Positions 41,324 through 50,195 of a stretch of 64,000 nucleotides of DNA are shown here, piece after piece. Made by a program: the position numbers and the translations under genes. Where the stretch lies: IMG/VR virus record IMGVR_UViG_3300033066_000778, positions 64,001 to 128,000 of that record; one strand, 5' to 3'. The notes below the pieces were generated by a model. That model worked only from the letters and a program-made list of their open reading frames with translations. It was not told the origin of the DNA and did not search any database. This DNA comes from a virus (lineage: Duplodnaviria; Caudoviricetes). The number at the start of each line of letters is the position of its first letter. The stretch's first letter is position 1.

Positions 41324-41506
41324 TTACGTTGACTCCTTAGTTTCTTCATTTTCTAAGTCAATGAGCTTGCATGACTGTTGAGAGAGGATGTCATTTAGTA
41401 ACTTTAGCCTTGCGTCAGGGTCCAAACCACCGATAAGCCCATGGATCCTAAGAGTATCATAGAGAATCTGGTAAAGGAGCAAGGCTTGATGAGAACTAAT
41501 CTTCAT
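41324..41506 (-). CDS. Hypothetical protein
   Basis: ATGA overlap with thyX stop. Confidence 0.6.
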   Translation of the reverse strand: MKISSHQALLLYQILYDTLRIHGLIGGLDPDARLKLLNDILSQQSCKLIDLENEETKEST

Positions 41507-42186
41507 ATCTTTGAGCCCATAAGGGCTTCCCAAGAAACTGGAGCAACTGTACGAACCAAAGCCGAAATCGCATCAGCGTAATCTTGACTCTCTTTTTGAG
41601 CCGTAGGTGCTGCCCTATGATTTACGATACGAGCGTAAGCGTAAAGAGAACCAGTTTCAATAAACTCGGTATAAGTTGAAACAGGAAGAACCATACGCGC
41701 TTGTTCGGGACAGACATCCTCTTCCAGAAGTCTAAGGTATAGATCCCTTGCTTCGGTGTAGAAGTCCTTAATCCGGTACTTTAGGTACGTATAGTCCTCT
41801 TCATGTAGGACACGATCTGACGACCCTTGTTTCTTATCTGATGCAGCGTGTCTTAGACTAGAAGGAAGATGAAACTCTGGATCGTCTGTAACGTAGCGAC
41901 GTGAAATCTCATTACGTGAAAGACCGACCTGATGCTTAAAGTATTGACGAGCTACGAAAAAAGGCATTTTAATACGAAGCTGGATTTGTACATGGGTGAA
42001 AGGAGAGAAGTGCGGGGGTTGACTTTGCGCTAGGTAGTTAACCAGTGACCTATCCTTCATATCAAAGATTTCTTTGTGCTTGTTGAAGGATACCCTTGCG
42101 GCATTCACAACCGAAAGGTCATTACCCATGCTGTCAATGAGACTTACGAAACCCTTATCTAATACGTAAATGGTAGGAGGGTTCAT
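41503..42186 (-). CDS. thyX: Flavin-dependent thymidylate synthase
   Basis: VNAARVSF, H.SPF, FVARQ..KH, NEISRRYV, EQARMVLP. Confidence 0.95.
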   Translation of the reverse strand: MNPPTIYVLDKGFVSLIDSMGNDLSVVNAARVSFNKHKEIFDMKDRSLVNYLAQSQPPHFSPFTHVQIQLRIKMPFFVARQYFKHQVGLSRNEISRRYVTDDPEFHLPSSLRHAASDKKQGSSDRVLHEEDYTYLKYRIKDFYTEARDLYLRLLEEDVCPEQARMVLPVSTYTEFIETGSLYAYARIVNHRAAPTAQKESQDYADAISALVRTVAPVSWEALMGSKI

Positions 42187-43516: not shown

Positions 43517-43693
43517 ATGACAAAAGAAGAACTTGACAAGCTCCTGAAGCTAATAAATGAGAACCCAACTGAAATTCAACTACCAAAGATTGATGATAAA
43601 AAACTACTTGATACTTATCAGGTTGGATTCTTAAACGGTTACGCTAACCTGAGAATGAAGATCAAAAGGCTGTTCATCCCACAAGGTGGTTGA
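43517..43693 (+). CDS. 58-aa hypothetical protein (not in ORF track)
   Basis: AGGA RBS; MTKEELDKLLKLINENPTEIQLPKID...FIPQGG*. Confidence 0.6.
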   Translation: MTKEELDKLLKLINENPTEIQLPKIDDKKLLDTYQVGFLNGYANLRMKIKRLFIPQGG

Positions 43694-43721: not shown

Positions 43722-44114
43722 TTAGAACGGAACCAGATACTGATCTAGTTGTTCTGGAATTTCGTAAGTTTCTGGCCTAAGTAACAGTAGCGTTAAGCAA
43801 TTATCCGAACATACAGTACGAAGAACATAAGTATTCGCCTGTTGCCACTCTGTTCCCTTAACATGGAAATATACAAAGTGAACTAGATCTGGATACGGTG
43901 GATCTTTGTAGTAATACTCTTTTTTAGGTCCGTCACAAATACAACAACCAGCAAAAGTACATAGTGATGATGTTAGTAATACGCCGTTATCGTTGTAAAC
44001 ACTGATACCAATTTCTTCTACTTCAATTGGTAACAGGTCTAGCCTTAGTACATATCTACCCTTACTTGGGGCTAGGTCATCCAAGGCTAATACAAGAGAG
44101 AAATTACTTTTCAT
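43722..44114 (-). CDS. Zn-finger array member 22
   Basis: CCIC...VCSDNCLTLLLLR. Confidence 0.8.
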   Translation of the reverse strand: MKSNFSLVLALDDLAPSKGRYVLRLDLLPIEVEEIGISVYNDNGVLLTSSLCTFAGCCICDGPKKEYYYKDPPYPDLVHFVYFHVKGTEWQQANTYVLRTVCSDNCLTLLLLRPETYEIPEQLDQYLVPF

Positions 44115-44536
44115 TTAACGTCATTCATAAAGTTTATTAGACTATCTTTCCAAAGAAACTTTACCTTTGGGTATTCTGGCGTAACACTTTCAACCAAACA
44201 AAATAAATCCAGACATTGTTTATTACAGAATGTAAAAATTCTTTGCCAGTGACTATGTGTTGAATAAAGCTCTAAATTAGCCATATTTATGTTGCTTACA
44301 GAGACGTAAACATAGAGCTTCTTCCGGTGGTATCCAAGGTCATGACGGTTTTGGTCACAGCCCTTGCAAAACTCCCAAGGAACACGACCCCGTCCTTCAA
44401 CATAGATGCAGTCCCCTATAGCTGACTGGATTTCGTCTATGCTTTCGATTTTTTCGAATGTATAGCTGTACGTACCCGGCGAGAAAGGTGCAAAAGGCAT
44501 AGGACCAAGATGCTTCCGTAGAGGAAAAAAGATCAA
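44111..44536 (-). CDS. Zn-finger array member 21
   Basis: CKGC...FCNKQCLDLFCL. Confidence 0.8.
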   Translation of the reverse strand: MIFFPLRKHLGPMPFAPFSPGTYSYTFEKIESIDEIQSAIGDCIYVEGRGRVPWEFCKGCDQNRHDLGYHRKKLYVYVSVSNINMANLELYSTHSHWQRIFTFCNKQCLDLFCLVESVTPEYPKVKFLWKDSLINFMNDVK

Positions 44537-44835
44537 GGGATAGATGTTGGAATAATTTGATCATCTTCGCGGAGGAGCCAAAGGTTCTTACACTGTTCGG
44601 AGCAAAAGTAGAGATTAAGATTAGACACCAAAGCGTCATTAAAAGAAACAACAATAACACTTGAACTACTAACATGCTCTTTTTCACAAAAACAGCAGCT
44701 AACTTCGTGATCTAAAGCTGTAGTGAATACTTTGTTAATAACAATTTTATTATTGTTATTTCTATAAAAAGCAAGGTAACGCTGTATAGTCTTATGCTCG
44801 GCTTCAACGCGATTGATTGTTTTTGTCTCAGGCAT
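44533..44835 (-). CDS. Zn-finger array member 20
   Basis: CCFC...FCSEQCKNLWLLR; start refined. Confidence 0.8.
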   Translation of the reverse strand: MPETKTINRVEAEHKTIQRYLAFYRNNNNKIVINKVFTTALDHEVSCCFCEKEHVSSSSVIVVSFNDALVSNLNLYFCSEQCKNLWLLREDDQIIPTSIP

Positions 44836-45247
44836 CTTTGTCACACTCGCGTAATGCCCTAGCATCTGAAAGAGCATTATGTGGGATTTTGGAAGAAAAA
44901 CAAGATAACCGGCTATCTACTCTGAAGGTAAGAATAGGTGTATGTAGTTCCATCCTTATGCCAGGACCAGTTATAAGGGCATTACAGAAAAGCTTGATAT
45001 CTTCAGGCCAATCAGCAATGATCGTAATCTCCCAAAACTGCCTGAGAAACTTATTGAGCTTTTCCTGAAACTTCTTGTACGTTATGGGCTTTTTATTCAA
45101 GATTGGTATTACGTTGTCTTTAACCCAAGGAACTGGACTTCGGCAAGCTAAAACCTCATAAAACTCTTCACCAGTTTCAGCCACCAAAGCCATGGAGATT
45201 AGTTTCCCGTTGAAGCCATTAAATTCTGTATCAATATAAATGTTCAT
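44828..45247 (-). CDS. DEDDh 3'-5' exonuclease (RNase AS/DUF5051-like)
   Basis: IYIDTEF, LISMALV, ADWPED, HNALSDA. Confidence 0.85.
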   Translation of the reverse strand: MNIYIDTEFNGFNGKLISMALVAETGEEFYEVLACRSPVPWVKDNVIPILNKKPITYKKFQEKLNKFLRQFWEITIIADWPEDIKLFCNALITGPGIRMELHTPILTFRVDSRLSCFSSKIPHNALSDARALRECDKDA

Positions 45248-45639
45248 TTCTTCCTCTTACTCCTTGTCGTTCTTCCAATAACCGCTGTGTACATCCAGTA
45301 TGGTAGATTAAATGGTACGATCTGGTCACCGATCTTAATCGTTGGGTATATCCCTCTAACAGTACTGTAAAGTAGATCTACCTCTATATCTTCTTTTATC
45401 GTGTATCGTAAACAAAACATGTCGTAGCATGGTAAGGAGCAAAAAGTGGTACAAATACCGAAGTCATTATATACCGTGTAGAAACCTCGTTTTGTCTTTA
45501 TCTGTTTTTCACACATATTACAGTTAAAACTAAGTTCAAGACTATTCTCTTTGCACCTTACTATATCACGAGTAGGAAACTCCAAAAACGCATCGTACCT
45601 CGTAGGTGGGATAACCTGTTGCCAGCCAAGTGGTATCAT
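45244..45639 (-). CDS. Zn-finger array member 19
   Basis: CNMC...FCSLPCYDMFCLR. Confidence 0.8.
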   Translation of the reverse strand: MIPLGWQQVIPPTRYDAFLEFPTRDIVRCKENSLELSFNCNMCEKQIKTKRGFYTVYNDFGICTTFCSLPCYDMFCLRYTIKEDIEVDLLYSTVRGIYPTIKIGDQIVPFNLPYWMYTAVIGRTTRSKRKK

Positions 45640-45860
45640 GCGTAGTCATCCATAAATATTCTGCCATACCGGATCAAATGCAAGGACATACATTGAATAC
45701 TACAAAAATAACAGGCTGGATAGGTGCCGTCTATGTAAAAGCAAGTATAGCTGTTTGGATAATGATTCATTATAATATCAATGATCTCTGGGTCTACAGC
45801 ACAACTAATACTTAGTACTGTCCTATTATCTACTTCAGAACTACAACAAAGACAAAGCAT
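45636..45860 (-). CDS. Zn-finger array member 18
   Basis: CLCC...FCSIQCMSLHLIR. Confidence 0.8.
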   Translation of the reverse strand: MLCLCCSSEVDNRTVLSISCAVDPEIIDIIMNHYPNSYTCFYIDGTYPACYFCSIQCMSLHLIRYGRIFMDDYA

Positions 45861-45861
45861 C

Positions 45862-46083
45862 TTAACCTTCTCTCAAGATAAGGATGCGCTCACACTCTTC
45901 TGAGCATACAGCAACGGTAATTTTCTGTTTTAGGGATTTGTGTAATTGCATGGCTAAGGGAGACGTTGGCCTATACGTAATCTGCATGTACCTACCATTT
46001 TTAGACTCTAGCTTACTTTCACAAACATGGCAATGAAAGGTAAAAACAATGTTATCTTTATCGCCGCCTAGAGTAAATGACAT
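45862..46083 (-). CDS. Zn-finger array member 17
   Basis: CHVC...VCSEECERILILREG. Confidence 0.8.
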   Translation of the reverse strand: MSFTLGGDKDNIVFTFHCHVCESKLESKNGRYMQITYRPTSPLAMQLHKSLKQKITVAVCSEECERILILREG

Positions 46084-46352
46084 TAGCCTTTCCTCAAATC
46101 ATAAATACCCAAACAAGCGTCTGAGCAAATGTATATGAGGGAACTTGTTGACGACCAAGTAACATAAGTATCTGAGGATAACCGGACGTAGCACTTATTC
46201 GTACCTATGTCCTCATTACAAACCCCACAGTAAATCTTTAAGGTCATCTTTACGTTATCTTTTTGAATGTCAATAATAGAACCGTAGTTATCCGCTATAT
46301 TACTAGTTTTAGCCCAATTGAGCTTGTAATCGTCTTCGTTAGTTATTGGCAT
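46083..46352 (-). CDS. Zn-finger array member 16
   Basis: CGVC...ICSDACLGIYDLRKG. Confidence 0.8.
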   Translation of the reverse strand: MPITNEDDYKLNWAKTSNIADNYGSIIDIQKDNVKMTLKIYCGVCNEDIGTNKCYVRLSSDTYVTWSSTSSLIYICSDACLGIYDLRKG

Positions 46353-46603
46353 CAGTCATGTCCTTCTCGTAGGATAAACAACTCTAAACAACGGTCAGAA
46401 CAGATGTACACGTTACAGGATACCGTATAGCCATATTCTCCGTAAAGCGGAACATGAGTATCTGTTGATACACGACTATAGTATGTACTATCAAAGTCTA
46501 CCATTAAACCACAAACATCACAGACATGATTAACATAATACGTGAAAGACTGATTACCAGGAGGTAATGTAACAACGAGGTTATTATCCACGGCTGAGTT
46601 CAT
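46352..46603 (-). CDS. Zn-finger array member 15
   Basis: CDVC...ICSDRCLELFILREG. Confidence 0.8.
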   Translation of the reverse strand: MNSAVDNNLVVTLPPGNQSFTYYVNHVCDVCGLMVDFDSTYYSRVSTDTHVPLYGEYGYTVSCNVYICSDRCLELFILREGHD

Positions 46604-46775
46604 AAAGCTCCTTACACCGATCTGAGCAAAAGTAAATAAAAGTCTCGTAGCGAGGGGGTTTAGCTTGCACTTGCATATGCAAAGTACACAAAACCTGATT
46701 TATCGTCTTAACAGGGTTACCACACTGGAAACAAGGAGTTTCACTGATTAACGACGTATAAAAGAAGTGGATCAT
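46584..46775 (-). CDS. Zn-finger array member 14
   Basis: CFQC...FCSDRCKELYELSRG. Confidence 0.8.
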   Translation of the reverse strand: MIHFFYTSLISETPCFQCGNPVKTINQVLCTLHMQVQAKPPRYETFIYFCSDRCKELYELSRG

Positions 46776-47044
46776 ACACTCTCATTTGTATACGGTTCGT
46801 AAAACAGAGGCTTTAATACTATACCCTGTTCTACACTAAACATATCCAAACATACGTCAGAGCAAATATAACTTGGTTTAACAAAGTCTGTCTCAGAAAT
46901 AATGTGTACAGTATGTACCCATCCGCTCGTTGTTATCTTGGTTTTACAGACATAACAATACGTATCCAAAGGTAATAGTCCTATCTCTAAAGATAATAGT
47001 CCTATCTTTATAGAGTATCCCTGGCAATAGAATCTATCGGGCAT
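46772..47044 (-). CDS. Zn-finger array member 13
   Basis: CYVC...ICSDVCLDMF. Confidence 0.8.
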   Translation of the reverse strand: MPDRFYCQGYSIKIGLLSLEIGLLPLDTYCYVCKTKITTSGWVHTVHIISETDFVKPSYICSDVCLDMFSVEQGIVLKPLFYEPYTNESV

Positions 47045-47045
47045 T

Positions 47046-47231
47046 TTATACCCTCAGCATTTGTATGTTCATACACTCTTCTGAACAACAGTAATAGTAA
47101 TGTTCATAATATTGACTTCTTCGCTCTATTACTAAATAACAAATCATATCTTTTTCTACTTGTGTATCACATACTGGACAAGACATAGACCCAAACGGTG
47201 ATTTCGCTCTTCCAGTGGATACAATACTCAT
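47046..47231 (-). CDS. Zn-finger array member 12
   Basis: CPVC...CCSEECMNIQMLR. Confidence 0.8.
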   Translation of the reverse strand: MSIVSTGRAKSPFGSMSCPVCDTQVEKDMICYLVIERRSQYYEHYYYCCSEECMNIQMLRV

Positions 47232-47440
47232 TAGCCTAATCTCAGTAAAAGAAAATCTCTACAAGCAGTTGAACAACAGTAGGAAACACACTCAATTTGT
47301 ATAGCATTGGGCTTTTCATACGCTACTGAATAACATACTGATCTTGGCTTTATTTCAGCTTCACATACTGTACAAAACAACTTGTAAAAAGCATTATTTG
47401 TATAAGGGACTTTTATCGTACCAGAATATGTAATGCTCAT
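47231..47440 (-). CDS. Zn-finger array member 11
   Basis: CTVC...CCSTACRDFLLLRLG. Confidence 0.8.
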   Translation of the reverse strand: MSITYSGTIKVPYTNNAFYKLFCTVCEAEIKPRSVCYSVAYEKPNAIQIECVSYCCSTACRDFLLLRLG

Positions 47441-47637
47441 TATCCAATCCTCAGTATAAACAAGTCTTTACATTGCGTTGAACAACAAAAGCTTTTAACC
47501 CTGGATGGAACGAAAGCCCAAAGAGTATAAGTAATTTCAAAGTAGTTATAATGTGCTCTGATGTCTTTATCGCAAATGGAGCAAATCAGATCTACTGGAG
47601 TAGATCTCCAATCTACGTCTACAGCCCTTATAGCCAT
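47440..47637 (-). CDS. Zn-finger array member 10
   Basis: CSIC...CCSTQCKDLFILRIG. Confidence 0.8.
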   Translation of the reverse strand: MAIRAVDVDWRSTPVDLICSICDKDIRAHYNYFEITYTLWAFVPSRVKSFCCSTQCKDLFILRIG

Positions 47638-47999
47638 TGGATCACGTCGTCATTTTCGTCGGGAGGCATGTAACACCCCGCATTCAGACAAAACAGAGAA
47701 ACACACTGATCCGAACAAAACAGTAATGCAATCCCCATGATAAATCTGTTAGGAAACGAAGCCGGGTTAATCAAGGCCAAAATGGGTTTAAACCCCTGAC
47801 GAAGCAAGGGGTCATTAAGATTCTTACCAGAAGAGATGTCTGCTGTCAACTCAAAGAAGCACATCAAGAACGAATCGTCTTTACCAAGTTTCTCGTTACA
47901 CATAAAACATTGTTTTTTACCAGAAACCAAAGGGTCATCACGTTTTACGACGAATTTCTTGCTATACAGATCATAGATGTCTTTTATCTTAGTGTCCAT
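47628..47999 (-). CDS. Zn-finger array member 9
   Basis: CFMC...FCSDQCVSLFCL. Confidence 0.8.
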   Translation of the reverse strand: MDTKIKDIYDLYSKKFVVKRDDPLVSGKKQCFMCNEKLGKDDSFLMCFFELTADISSGKNLNDPLLRQGFKPILALINPASFPNRFIMGIALLFCSDQCVSLFCLNAGCYMPPDENDDVIQWL

Positions 48000-48289
48000 T
48001 CTGCCTTCTTTAAACCTCGCCAGTTAATCTTCGAATACGCGTCACTGGAAATATAGAACAAATCGTGGCAAGGTCTAGTACAAAAATACAAAAGCTTATC
48101 AGTAAAAGCGTTAGGATGCCTTAGCATCATATAGTAGTAAGGTTTATTACCAATTTCTTTTTTACAGTAAAAACAATATTTAATTACGTCAGGACCATCT
48201 GCCTTCATTTTATAAAGGGTATTCACGTCATGGCGAACTTTAGGTCTTTTTCGTTTAATACTCATAGTGATTCCAAAGTTATTGCTCAT
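47984..48289 (-). CDS. Zn-finger array member 8
   Basis: CFYC...FCTRPCHDLFYI. Confidence 0.8.
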   Translation of the reverse strand: MSNNFGITMSIKRKRPKVRHDVNTLYKMKADGPDVIKYCFYCKKEIGNKPYYYMMLRHPNAFTDKLLYFCTRPCHDLFYISSDAYSKINWRGLKKAEWTLR

Positions 48290-48522
48290 AAGGATCTAAC
48301 CAGCCATAATTCTAAGCAGGATTTAGAACAAAACCAAACAAACTCTAAGTTAATGCTAACCAAAGAATTATCGTTTAAACTCTCTGAGTAATATGCCCGT
48401 TTTTCTATCGAAAGTAGTTGAGTTACCATAGAATCTGAACAACCATCACACGCATAAGGGTAAGGACTGCTTAGCTTAGTGCTGTTGTACTTTCCATACT
48501 TATACGATAAGTTTTTAGCCAT
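48286..48522 (-). CDS. Zn-finger array member 7
   Basis: CDGC...FCSKSCLELWLVR. Confidence 0.8.
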   Translation of the reverse strand: MAKNLSYKYGKYNSTKLSSPYPYACDGCSDSMVTQLLSIEKRAYYSESLNDNSLVSINLEFVWFCSKSCLELWLVRSL

Positions 48523-48799
48523 TATCCAATACCCAAAGTTCCTTACACATTTTAGAGCAAAAGAACTTTATTTCCTCTGTTTTGCTGGCGGGAAACATAA
48601 TACCGTCACGCTGTACAACATGATATCTGCGTTCTATGTATAACACTCTATAATGGCAGAAACCAGAAAAGTCACATCGTTCACAAGTTCGCCACTTACC
48701 AACTTTAAGTTTTCGTATACCAATATCTACCGCACGACAAATTCTTAACCAGCCGTTTGCACTATTGATATCTTTTAATTTAATGATCTTATTATTCAT
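48515..48799 (-). CDS. Zn-finger array member 6
   Basis: CERC...FCSKMCKELWVL; start refined to ATGA overlap. Confidence 0.8.
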   Translation of the reverse strand: MNNKIIKLKDINSANGWLRICRAVDIGIRKLKVGKWRTCERCDFSGFCHYRVLYIERRYHVVQRDGIMFPASKTEEIKFFCSKMCKELWVLDNG

Positions 48800-49089
48800 A
48801 CGTGACACAAAGCCCACAACTGCTTACATTGCTCAGTACAAAAGTAATAATAAGAATGGTATTTATCCAAAAGAGTTTCTATCTCACTTTCCCCAATCAA
48901 GCTTTTTTCTGTCATCACCTTAATAGTATAAGGACACGGAACCTCTCGTCTGCAATGCGTACATACAAAAGTACCTTTGTACTTACGACGACTTCTCCTG
49001 GTATTGAGAGAAATCTCCCTAGTGTATTTTATCTTTTTTCCACTAGTATACGGAAAAAACACGTCTTTTAGTTTAAGGAATTCAGACAT
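48796..49089 (-). CDS. Zn-finger array member 5
   Basis: CTHC...FCTEQCKQLWAL. Confidence 0.8.
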   Translation of the reverse strand: MSEFLKLKDVFFPYTSGKKIKYTREISLNTRRSRRKYKGTFVCTHCRREVPCPYTIKVMTEKSLIGESEIETLLDKYHSYYYFCTEQCKQLWALCHV

Positions 49090-49315
49090 TACTCAATACC
49101 CATAAATCACAGCATAACTGGGAACAGAAGTTAAGCTGTATATTATAGAAAAACTCCTGATCACCATTAAAGCGTTTCTTATATAACTTAGTCTTTAACG
49201 TAATCAAAGTACCCACTGAATCACATCGATCACAAGTATAAGGCATGTAATCCATTTCATGACAAACGCACTTAAACCTAGCATCGAACCGTTCATCATT
49301 AAGTTTATTTCTCAT
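49082..49315 (-). CDS. Zn-finger array member 4
   Basis: CDRC...FCSQLCCDLWVL; start refined to ATGA overlap. Confidence 0.8.
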   Translation of the reverse strand: MRNKLNDERFDARFKCVCHEMDYMPYTCDRCDSVGTLITLKTKLYKKRFNGDQEFFYNIQLNFCSQLCCDLWVLSNV

Positions 49316-49575
49316 CCGCACTCCCGTAACAACCATAATTCAGTACATTGCTTACTACAAAAAAAGTAAAATAGTTTTTCTTCACAAGTTTGCTTCGTTC
49401 TCTTATACTCTGCTTTAAGTATTACCCGAAGTCTAAATCTACAACTATACTCGCCACAAAACCGACATGAAGCTTCTTCTAATCTGACTTGCTCTTCTGG
49501 TGTACAGCTAATAATTACTACTTGTCGGTAATATTGGGTATTCATAAGCTCTTCAGTAAAAAAGACTTCAGGCAT
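49312..49575 (-). CDS. Zn-finger array member 3
   Basis: CRFC...FCSKQCTELWLLR. Confidence 0.8.
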   Translation of the reverse strand: MPEVFFTEELMNTQYYRQVVIISCTPEEQVRLEEASCRFCGEYSCRFRLRVILKAEYKRTKQTCEEKLFYFFCSKQCTELWLLRECG

Positions 49576-49759
49576 TTGCTAAATACCAAAGTTTAGCACA
49601 GGATAGAGAACAAAAGTAATATCTTCTTTTATACACGAAGCCTAAATACCGAGTTTTTTCTACTATCCAGTACCTGCAACCTTTAGTATCGCAATGATGA
49701 CAGACAAAACCCCGTCGTAAGGCAATTTTACTGATTCTGGAATAAGTGATATCAGGCAT
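49568..49759 (-). CDS. Zn-finger array member 2
   Basis: CHHC...FCSLSCAKLWYL. Confidence 0.8.
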   Translation of the reverse strand: MPDITYSRISKIALRRGFVCHHCDTKGCRYWIVEKTRYLGFVYKRRYYFCSLSCAKLWYLANA

Positions 49760-50024
49760 GACTCAAATAATAGATATTAGCACATTGTTTAGAACAGAAG
49801 TATAGTCTACCCGAAGCATCACGTAAATGTCGTAAAGTATCAGGAATCCAGTAATTCTTAACCAAGGAAGTTTTAACCGTCATCTTAATACTGTAATTAC
49901 AACCGAACTTGGAGCAGGTTAAACAACTATACTCCCTTACCTTCCCTTTTCGGGGAACGCTGTAATGAGTGGTTGTTATCGTTTCGGTTTTATAATCCGT
50001 AATCATGTGAAAAGGTCTAGTCAT
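49752..50024 (-). CDS. Zn-finger array member 1
   Basis: CLTC...FCSKQCANIYYL. Confidence 0.8.
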   Translation of the reverse strand: MTRPFHMITDYKTETITTTHYSVPRKGKVREYSCLTCSKFGCNYSIKMTVKTSLVKNYWIPDTLRHLRDASGRLYFCSKQCANIYYLSHA

Positions 50025-50195
50025 CGCTCATAAATATATACCTGGGATTGTTAGTATTCCAGGTTTTTTTGTTTTTATCCTTTTAGCCCCTTGCTGCCCC
50101 CGAAGACCCCATACGCCCATTAACCCCTTTAATTACTTTTATATATCGCTTTTTAACTTGATTTCTAAAAACGACTCGTTAGGGGAAATGACCCG

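Follow-up and report, generated by a model that had tools for sequence, protein, structure and literature searches.

The subject of this report is a long tandem array of genes for very small, putative zinc-binding proteins in an uncultured, apparently freshwater virus assigned to the Caudoviricetes (Duplodnaviria). The stretch of DNA that was analysed, referred to here as the window, is 64,000 nucleotides (nt) long and corresponds to bases 64001-128000 of the 153,958-bp linear IMG/VR virus record IMGVR_UViG_3300033066_000778, whose completeness is estimated at 83%. The array lies on the minus strand at positions 43722-50024 of the window. The region has about 36-39% G+C, and the array ends near position 50000, where the G+C content rises sharply to 58%. 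It is the first block to be read leftward out of a divergent control region. Downstream of it, after a few small genes, lies a thymidylate synthase gene (41503-42186), and a protein further downstream gives a weak ribonucleotide-reductase-like match. The window also contains nine tRNA genes. All told, the 22 array genes that encode the family make up about 4% of the 154-kb genome. Public sequencing runs containing this stretch come from three studies, with no RNA run listed among them, and the only habitat labels, riverine and groundwater, are attached to runs in which its share is small.

The array consists of 23 consecutive minus-strand open reading frames (ORFs) of 61-141 amino acids (aa), all but one of which encode members of the same family. 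Each of these 22 proteins has a CxxC pair, then 23-60 residues, then the sequence [FICV]C[STN]xxC, which supplies a C-x3-C pair, and finally a hydrophobic helix. A first-pass annotation, made from the letters alone, had already described 22 of 23 neighbouring ORFs in these terms, and every one of the 22 was confirmed. When the 22 member cores are aligned (A1), only the columns of the four cysteines are invariant; every other column stays below 90%, and mean column identity is 20%. The C-x2-C and C-x3-C ligands are likewise invariant in 57 of 57 members of a larger set drawn from four phage lineages. The third cysteine is preceded by F in 14 of the window members, by I in 3, by V in 2 and by C in 3; it is followed by S in 19, by T in 2 and by N in 1. 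Other than the cysteines, the conserved positions are confined to the L, [WFY] and L of the helix, at +7, +8 and +10 from the third cysteine; the N-terminal extension, the segment between the cysteine pairs and the C-terminal tails differ from copy to copy. All 22 reading frames are intact, and the members form a connected network when compared all against all. As a control for chance, the regular expression for the motif and a hidden Markov model (HMM) of the family were run on all six frames of 23 other phage loci, each 7.6-20.4 kb long; they found no member there and recover 22 of 22 in the window. By sequence, the 22 members are evidently one paralogous family.

The genes are packed very tightly. 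Twenty of the 22 junctions overlap, by 1-50 nt, which gives the array the look of a single translationally coupled operon; the other two have a gap of 1 nt. A few starts are uncertain, since the database versions of three members (z02, z18 and z20, see below) begin 6-12 codons later. The proteins are far from uniform in charge, with isoelectric points (pI) from 4.4 to 9.7: the pI exceeds 9 in z16, z18, z19, z22 and z23 and lies between 4.4 and 6.4 in eight members.

There is good reason to think that the array grew by duplication of neighbouring genes. Sub-groups of adjacent members, proposed in the first-pass annotation, are visible in the alignment as an LW type (z17-z22, 48286-49759), a CCS type (z12-z14, 47046-47637) and a type with I, V or F before CS and an LRxG motif (z07-z11, 45862-47044). 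The further apart two members stand in the array, the less similar they tend to be (rank distance, Spearman -0.335, permutation p 2e-4), a decay that serial tandem duplication predicts, and the adjacent gene is the best partner of eight members. At the DNA level, repeats persist in the motif-coding segments only. The best pair is 72% identical over 67 nt, so the duplications are old.

The members are numbered z01 to z23 from the distal to the promoter-proximal end, and all lie on the minus strand. Many have orthologues on short contigs of close relatives (L025-L030), and some in a more distant relative (L038), allowing comparison by protein identity and by the ratio of nonsynonymous to synonymous substitution rates (dN/dS). 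The promoter-proximal member, z23 (49752-50024; 90 aa, pI 9.5), is 46% identical to its L025 orthologue, with a dN/dS of 0.52. The LW-type genes follow: z22 (49568-49759; 63 aa; dN/dS 0.42), z21 (49312-49575; 87 aa; dN/dS 0.49), z20 (49082-49336; 84 aa, or 77 aa from a later ATG), z19 (48796-49089; 97 aa), z18 (48515-48817; 100 aa, or 94 aa from an ATG) and z17 (48286-48522; 78 aa). The orthologue of z19 is 71% identical and sits at another array position in L025, and that of z18 is 43% identical; z20 and z17 have no recognisable orthologue in the L025 piece. Next come z16 (47984-48289; 101 aa, pI 9.7; dN/dS 0.11), with orthologues 81% (L030) and 46% (L038) identical, and z15 (47628-47999; 123 aa; dN/dS 0.125), whose 60-residue segment between the cysteine pairs is the longest of all. 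The CCS-type genes are z14 (47440-47637; 65 aa), which has its neighbour z13 as best partner, z13 itself (47231-47440; 69 aa), which shares the 72% DNA identity over 67 nt with the neighbouring repeat at the z12/z13 junction, and z12 (47046-47231; 61 aa).

Further along the array, z11 (46772-47044; 90 aa) contains an internal 21-nt tandem duplication at 46965-47006; its two copies are 90% identical and add a repeated seven-residue unit to the N-terminal part of the protein. Beyond z10 (46584-46775; 63 aa) and the acidic z09 (46352-46603; 83 aa, pI 4.4) lie z08 (46083-46352; 89 aa), with an orthologue 93% identical and a dN/dS of 0.10, and z07 (45862-46083; 73 aa), with one only 35% identical. 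In z06 (45636-45860; 74 aa) the first CxxC lies at residues 3-6, and the orthologue is 46% identical; z05 (45244-45639; 131 aa; dN/dS 0.22) carries a 55-residue C-terminal tail. The one ORF outside the family separates z05 from z03 (44533-44877; 114 aa), whose start is uncertain and which overlaps the upstream gene by 50 nt; its orthologues are 72% (L029) and 39% (L038) identical. The last two members are z02 (44111-44536; 141 aa from a TTG, 129 aa from an ATG), with orthologues 68% (L026) and 34% (L038) identical, and z01 (43722-44114; 130 aa, pI 4.6; dN/dS 0.07), with orthologues 83% (L026) and 32% (L038) identical.

The gene embedded between z05 and z03 (44828-45247, minus strand; 139 aa) encodes an RNase H or DEDD 3'-5' exonuclease-like protein, matching phrog_2259 with an E value of 2.5e-33 and, weakly, Rv2179c-like proteins. 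It is 83% identical in a close relative, where it is likewise embedded in the array, with a dN/dS of 0.10, and served as a control for evolutionary rate. Orthologues of 14 members and of this gene were found on L025-L030, where the proteins of the array range from 35% (z07) to 93% (z08) identity. In the 13 orthologue pairs with unsaturated dS, dN/dS lies between 0.07 and 0.52, and the fastest members are the promoter-proximal z21-z23 (0.42-0.52). The rates are also unevenly spread within the proteins. Pooled dN/dS is 0.34 for the segment between the cysteine pairs, 0.22 for the N-terminus, 0.14 for the C-terminal motif and tails and 0.08 for the knuckle, where dS is saturated; amino-acid identity is 55% in the inter-cysteine segment versus 78% in the C-terminal motif. 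The idea of a fixed scaffold with variable N-termini and inter-cysteine segments, put forward from the window alone, is thus borne out by the four invariant cysteines and by the gap between 0.34 and 0.14. By these values each tested copy has been preserved by purifying selection, and constraint is tighter on the scaffold than on the hairpin it carries. Saturation of dS for z02 and z07, and values of about 1.1 elsewhere, make such tests blind to episodic positive selection.

Not only the sequences but also the content of the array changes between relatives. On the 3-kb L025 piece the order is z23', z22', z21', z18', two z16-like genes, z19' and z16', with no recognisable counterpart of z20 or z17. 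The more distant L038 keeps the downstream synteny (a 59-aa convergent gene, small genes, ThyX) and retains orthologues of z16, z03, z02 and z01 only, at 32-46% identity, versus 55% and 71% for flanking genes. By this measure, members diverge much faster than the genes around them. The RNase H-like gene has no counterpart in the L038 array. Its proximal part (L038:68-2258) is instead made up of ten genes of a different cysteine-containing mini-protein family, immediately upstream of the TRASH-like genes and in one array with them. Contigs from four read runs held the same strain or short pieces of near relatives, with no joints, and so gave no information on gain and loss. The first-pass annotation had called for a test of gain, loss and dN/dS in related phages, and had named, among the outcomes that would speak against it, members that share no fold, members that do not cluster, and an array invariant among relatives. 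What emerged is a shared family, clustered neighbours and an array that varies among relatives under dN/dS of 0.07-0.52. No reverse transcriptase (RVT_1) was found in the 154-kb record, at its estimated 83% completeness, which points to ordinary divergence and not to a diversity-generating retroelement; the array was accordingly rejected as a target of such an element.

The sequence just upstream of the array is considerably better conserved than the first gene behind it. The leader (50025-50195, read on the minus strand) includes a promoter-like block at about 50133-50168, an A-run and a hairpin at 50040-50064 that stops 15 nt before the z23 start codon. Its last ~200 aligned nt are 81.5% identical to the L025 leader, with near-identical blocks, versus 46% protein identity for the first gene, and within the hairpin the stem is kept while the loop varies. 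The 116-nt leader folds no better than its shuffles (z 0.30). From this pattern of conservation, the block is probably a promoter-like element that heads the array. Read on the plus strand, the same hairpin has a good intrinsic-terminator shape with a T-run; there is no plus-strand gene to its left.

At the distal end the array is abutted by a convergent gene of 58 aa (43517-43693, plus strand), for which there is no Pfam match. Convergent genes of 58-63 aa lie at the distal end of arrays elsewhere (L026:796-972, L038:4405-4584, L032:8602-8793 and L031:10672-10863), and the protein is 91% identical in L026-L028, 71% in L038 and 32-33% in the barely related phage represented by L031 and L032 (E 3e-12). 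The gene may accompany the arrays or regulate them. Homologues of the RNase H-like gene, 50-61% identical, occur in 23 other IMG/VR phage loci, and zinc-finger family members were found near none of these 23 more distant loci and in none of five whole records searched, so that gene and the array do not always go together. The absence from the 23 loci shows only that these distant phages lack the array at that place.

The family extends beyond the window, both in the same genome and in other phages. Outside the window the genome has a further 3-6 dispersed members, one among the structural genes and two to five around 131-140 kb. The lone member among the structural genes, 81 aa long, lies far from the array (G000:22064-22309, minus strand; L035:1565-1810). 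A second tandem array outside the window (G000:135822-137411; L036:323-1912, plus strand) consists of seven abutting genes for proteins of 72-91 aa that belong to a different, CxxC-CxxC-short helix family, the kind to which the ten proximal genes of L038 also belong, and TRASH-like members stand directly after it.

The first-pass annotation had suggested looking for similar arrays elsewhere, and arrays were found in two further, barely related lineages. Lineage B is represented by a 136-kb JGI contig (L032) and a near-identical Logan contig (L031), which share almost no other detectable genes with the window phage. Its array has at least 23 members, about 27 by motif, begins about 0.9 kb from a divergent gene and runs into genes for RNA ligase, RlaP, DNA ligase and ThyX. 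Beside the divergent gene, ahead of this array, are about 930 nt of gene-free, G+C-richer sequence (L032:707-1638), in which no sequence similarity to the region upstream of the window array was found. Lineage C comprises four contigs, one of them labelled soil: L039-L041, with 16-17 members each, and the shorter L042, with 9. Further members occur on smaller pieces (L033, L034 and L043). Most members find their best match within their own genome (15 of 22, 22 of 23 and 12 of 17), so the arrays are largely lineage-specific expansions. Searches of IMG/VR and the JGI metagenomes with the CSEECFN motif, the conserved leader word, the 763-aa neighbour, z03 and the alignment of the 58-aa gene gave no further loci, and a search with the L032 RNA ligase gave one distant locus (L037), which has no family member. 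Megablast with the array and tblastn with two members against 50,697 GenBank phage records yielded nothing useful from cultured phages.

Where do these proteins belong? No window member reaches the Pfam gathering score or the curated NCBIfam cut-off, and none of the 57 member cores matches PHROGs v4 at E <= 0.01; the one marginal PHROG match is that of full-length z08 to a PHROG of unknown function (E 0.0064). The sub-threshold Pfam matches of the 57 members nevertheless fall largely in one place: 12 to zf-FCS, 8 to DUF7576, 6 to zf-FLZ, 5 to YHS, 4 to C1_2 (an unrelated family), 2 to DUF2116 ('probable treble clef') and 1 to archaeal TRASH. YHS (PF04945), TRASH (PF08394), zf-FCS/MYM (PF06467), zf-FLZ (PF04570), DUF7576, DUF2116 and L24e (PF01246) share a single Pfam clan. 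Two of the 57 members also weakly match the NCBIfam L24e model (E 0.071).

Searches in the opposite direction lead to the same group. The A1 profile, run against 1.84 billion representative proteins, gave 45 matches at E <= 0.001, which on inspection include 13 of the window's own proteins, 7 orthologues in relatives, 7 small proteins on other phage-like contigs and 10 YHS-type proteins; among the remainder are C2H2 multi-finger proteins that score on the CxxC half only. The YHS-type matches have E values of 2.7e-9 to 9.1e-4. Four of them were checked in Pfam, and three score 155-185 bits on PF04945 and also touch TRASH, DUF7576, L24e and zf-FCS. Alignment of A1 with YHS by hhalign gives 96% probability over 24 C-terminal columns only (YFCSxxC and the helix), a partly circular figure in that the YHS set was taken from the same profile search. 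By sequence profile the best match of known structure is archaeal L24e, at E 0.014 with A1 and 0.24 with the larger family alignment (A2), neither of them significant. A word-indexed protein search with the 57-member alignment found little beyond its input sequences. Matches in the ESM Atlas, including YdaE-family clusters, score only 0.80-0.82, below the reliable range; no function of YdaE is known in the literature checked.

The motif itself fits the group in part. The 'FCS' motif at the start of the helix is matched by F in 14 and S in 19 of the 22 window members. The canonical TRASH spacer between the cysteine pairs is about 19-22 residues, and that of the array proteins, at 23-60 residues, lies beyond it; their hairpin is lengthened or contains insertions. 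The first-pass annotation had held that the cysteine pattern fits TRASH, YHS and FCS fingers and also the gyrase inhibitor YacG. The first part of this is upheld by the profiles; the second is not, and membership of the YacG family was rejected, as one member matches the Pfam model at E 0.37 and the structural match (Z 3.0) is at background. On our reading, the proteins would form a new phage family within the TRASH-like treble-clef group, and not be members of YacG, YHS or eL24. This placement draws mainly on the motif and the profile links.

Predicted structures are compatible with it, though all their structural matches are at background. AlphaFold models of the z09 core (predicted local distance difference test score, pLDDT, 79.8) and of whole z22 (pLDDT 88.6) run from a zinc knuckle through a long beta-hairpin to a C-terminal helix, and are consistent with a treble clef; each protein would presumably bind one structural zinc. 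In a structure search (VIA-align) the z09 model is led by eL24/Rlp24 (Z 4.0-4.6, root-mean-square deviation 3.3 A over 45 residues), with lower matches to NosL, YacG (PDB 4tma; Z 3.0 over 36 residues), the TRASH domain of ZMYM5 (Z 3.0) and an FCS finger (Z 2.4). With z22, unrelated sheet-plus-helix folds score equally high (Z at most 5.0) and eL24 reaches 3.5-3.7. Foldseek found nothing at E <= 0.001 in the PDB or BFVD.

What might so many small zinc proteins do? The reading we lean towards, with somewhat less than even confidence, is that the array encodes a diversified set of small protein binders, with a separate host protein as the target of each copy, in the course of takeover or counter-defence. 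The four cysteines and the hydrophobic face of the C-terminal helix would hold the fold, and the array would have grown by serial tandem duplication. It would be read as one tightly coupled operon from the promoter-like leader at the divergent control region, and its position there, ahead of nucleotide-metabolism genes, suggests that it is expressed early. The variable hairpin between the cysteine pairs, together with the N-terminus, may bind other macromolecules, and the repertoire, whose targets would be proteins and not nucleic acids, would turn over as hosts change. This reading is favoured because the early position, rapid divergence, flux in copy number and mixed charge match those of phage accessory genes that face host variation. 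It is also favoured by two precedents: YacG is a treble-clef mini-protein that inhibits a host enzyme, and in T4 selection has led to amplification of a small counter-defence gene (PMC9391042). A bolder form of the idea, possible but rather doubtful, is that an evolvable repertoire of one-zinc TRASH-fold mini-binders has expanded time and again in large uncultured phages, to at least 23 tandem copies in separate lineages. Each copy would neutralise or redirect a different host protein, be it part of a defence system or a core enzyme, so that the array would record the hosts and defences its lineage has met.

Several observations weigh against a role in protein binding. No structural match rises above background for a domain of this size (Z at most 5). 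Within the TRASH group there are relatives that handle metals (YHS) and others that bind RNA or DNA (eL24, FCS), so binding of proteins is not the default of the fold, and five members (z16, z18, z19, z22 and z23) are strongly basic, which suits the binding of nucleic acid. Moreover, dN/dS is below 1 everywhere and gives no direct sign of positive selection, a weak test with dS of about 1.1, near saturation. The second and third of these points feed directly into the main rival, in which the members would be nucleic-acid binders: DNA- or RNA-recognition modules or regulators with specificities of their own, acting on phage or host transcripts or genomes. Its case is built on the nearest relatives, among them the rRNA-binding eL24 (E 0.014; Z 4.0-4.6) and the FCS/MYM fingers (12 of 57 members with weak zf-FCS matches), as well as on the five members of pI above 9. 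Yet about half of the members are acidic or neutral (the eight at pI 4.4-6.4 among them), each has a single finger and is without a nuclease, helix-turn-helix or repeat partner, and the fastest-evolving members are not obviously confined to the basic surface type. Nor was any repeated DNA word that could be a set of targets seen in the array beyond the coding motif. On balance we consider this account unlikely, if a serious competitor.

The remaining explanations are less probable again. The members could be adaptors or subunits that dock through the conserved C-terminal helix on a common hub, be it a host machine or each other, with their variable parts presenting cargo. The confinement of conserved non-Cys positions to the helix (L, [WFY], L) would fit such a role, and the conserved 58-aa gene, which lies directly beside the array in three sources of lineage A as well as in lineage B, could encode the hub. 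By helix geometry, however, +7, +8 and +10 should lie on or beside the face of two cysteine ligands, pointing towards the core, and the same helix pattern is conserved in YHS and eL24, which have no common partner. The conserved positions are thus more simply taken as probable structural core, the proposal of a docking surface in the first-pass annotation finds no support, and we regard this explanation as improbable. Handling or buffering of a metal, copper or zinc, as by YHS and TRASH proteins in cells, is very improbable. The family profile does match bona fide YHS proteins (E 2.7e-9 to 9.1e-4; hhalign 96%, C-terminal half), but the YHS N-terminal motif, one Cys then a Met, is replaced by the CxxC knuckle, and 22 diverging paralogues with variable appendages and rapid turnover would be unexpected for a metal buffer; moreover, there are no transporter or metallochaperone genes near the array. 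Slimmer still is the chance that the array is evolutionary debris, made up of duplicated genes that drift and have no function. Copies of very low identity to one another (20% on average per column) and differences in copy number between relatives are what drift would leave, but no reading frame among the 22 is broken, the ligands never vary, dN/dS is 0.07-0.52, orthologues persist down to 32% identity and arrays recur in unrelated phages, so that this explanation is already disfavoured.

One very small and recognisable zinc scaffold has been copied and diversified more than 20 times in one genome, and independently in other lineages, and has been kept under selection. Inhibitors of bacterial enzymes and defence systems are known chiefly from the small proteins that phages make early in infection, most of them orphans without a recognisable fold. 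If the array proteins are binders, they would offer dozens to hundreds of natural variants on a 50-residue scaffold in which to look for mechanisms of anti-defence or takeover, a model for the growth of phage accessory genomes and a plentiful new supply of small natural inhibitors. Should they prove to bind nucleic acids, phages would be encoding a whole family of single-finger regulators, which is out of the ordinary. In both cases the family lacks a model in Pfam, NCBIfam and PHROGs and merits one. The fold class, and diversified accessory genes in general, are already known. What is new is the family, absent from these three collections and from cultured phages, and its tandem arrangement in several uncultured phage lineages, with 16 to at least 23 genes per array; the literature searched yielded no description of phage tandem arrays of TRASH, FCS or treble-clef proteins.

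Among known systems the TRASH-like fingers are the closest in build. They share with the array proteins the CxxC knuckle, the C-x3-C pair at the start of the helix, the aromatic residue and Ser around the third cysteine and the predicted order of knuckle, hairpin and helix. The array members differ in falling below every curated cut-off and in a spacer of 23-60 residues; they are also stand-alone phage proteins with variable N-terminal extensions, in arrays of 16 to 23 genes that are undescribed for these families in the literature searched. The N-terminal zinc domain of eL24/Rlp24 is the best match of solved structure, both by profile (E 0.014) and for the z09 model (Z 4.0-4.6), but the scores are below significance and eL24 is a ribosomal RNA-binding protein absent from bacteria. 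YacG, the DNA gyrase inhibitor of E. coli (PF03884, PDB 4tma), is the functional model used here: a small treble clef with a single zinc that binds and inhibits a host enzyme. That said, only one array member matches its Pfam model, at 11 bits versus a cut-off of 25.5, and the array proteins have no counterpart of the conserved C-terminal tail of YacG.

In the mode of growth, the nearest parallel is tifA of phage T4, a counter-defence gene amplified in tandem by recombination under pressure from a host defence (Srikant, Guegler and Laub 2022, PMC9391042). Both are cases of tandem gain of a small accessory phage gene. The tifA copies are recent, identical and of laboratory origin, whereas those of the array are ancient (about 20% identity), individually maintained and members of a zinc-finger family.

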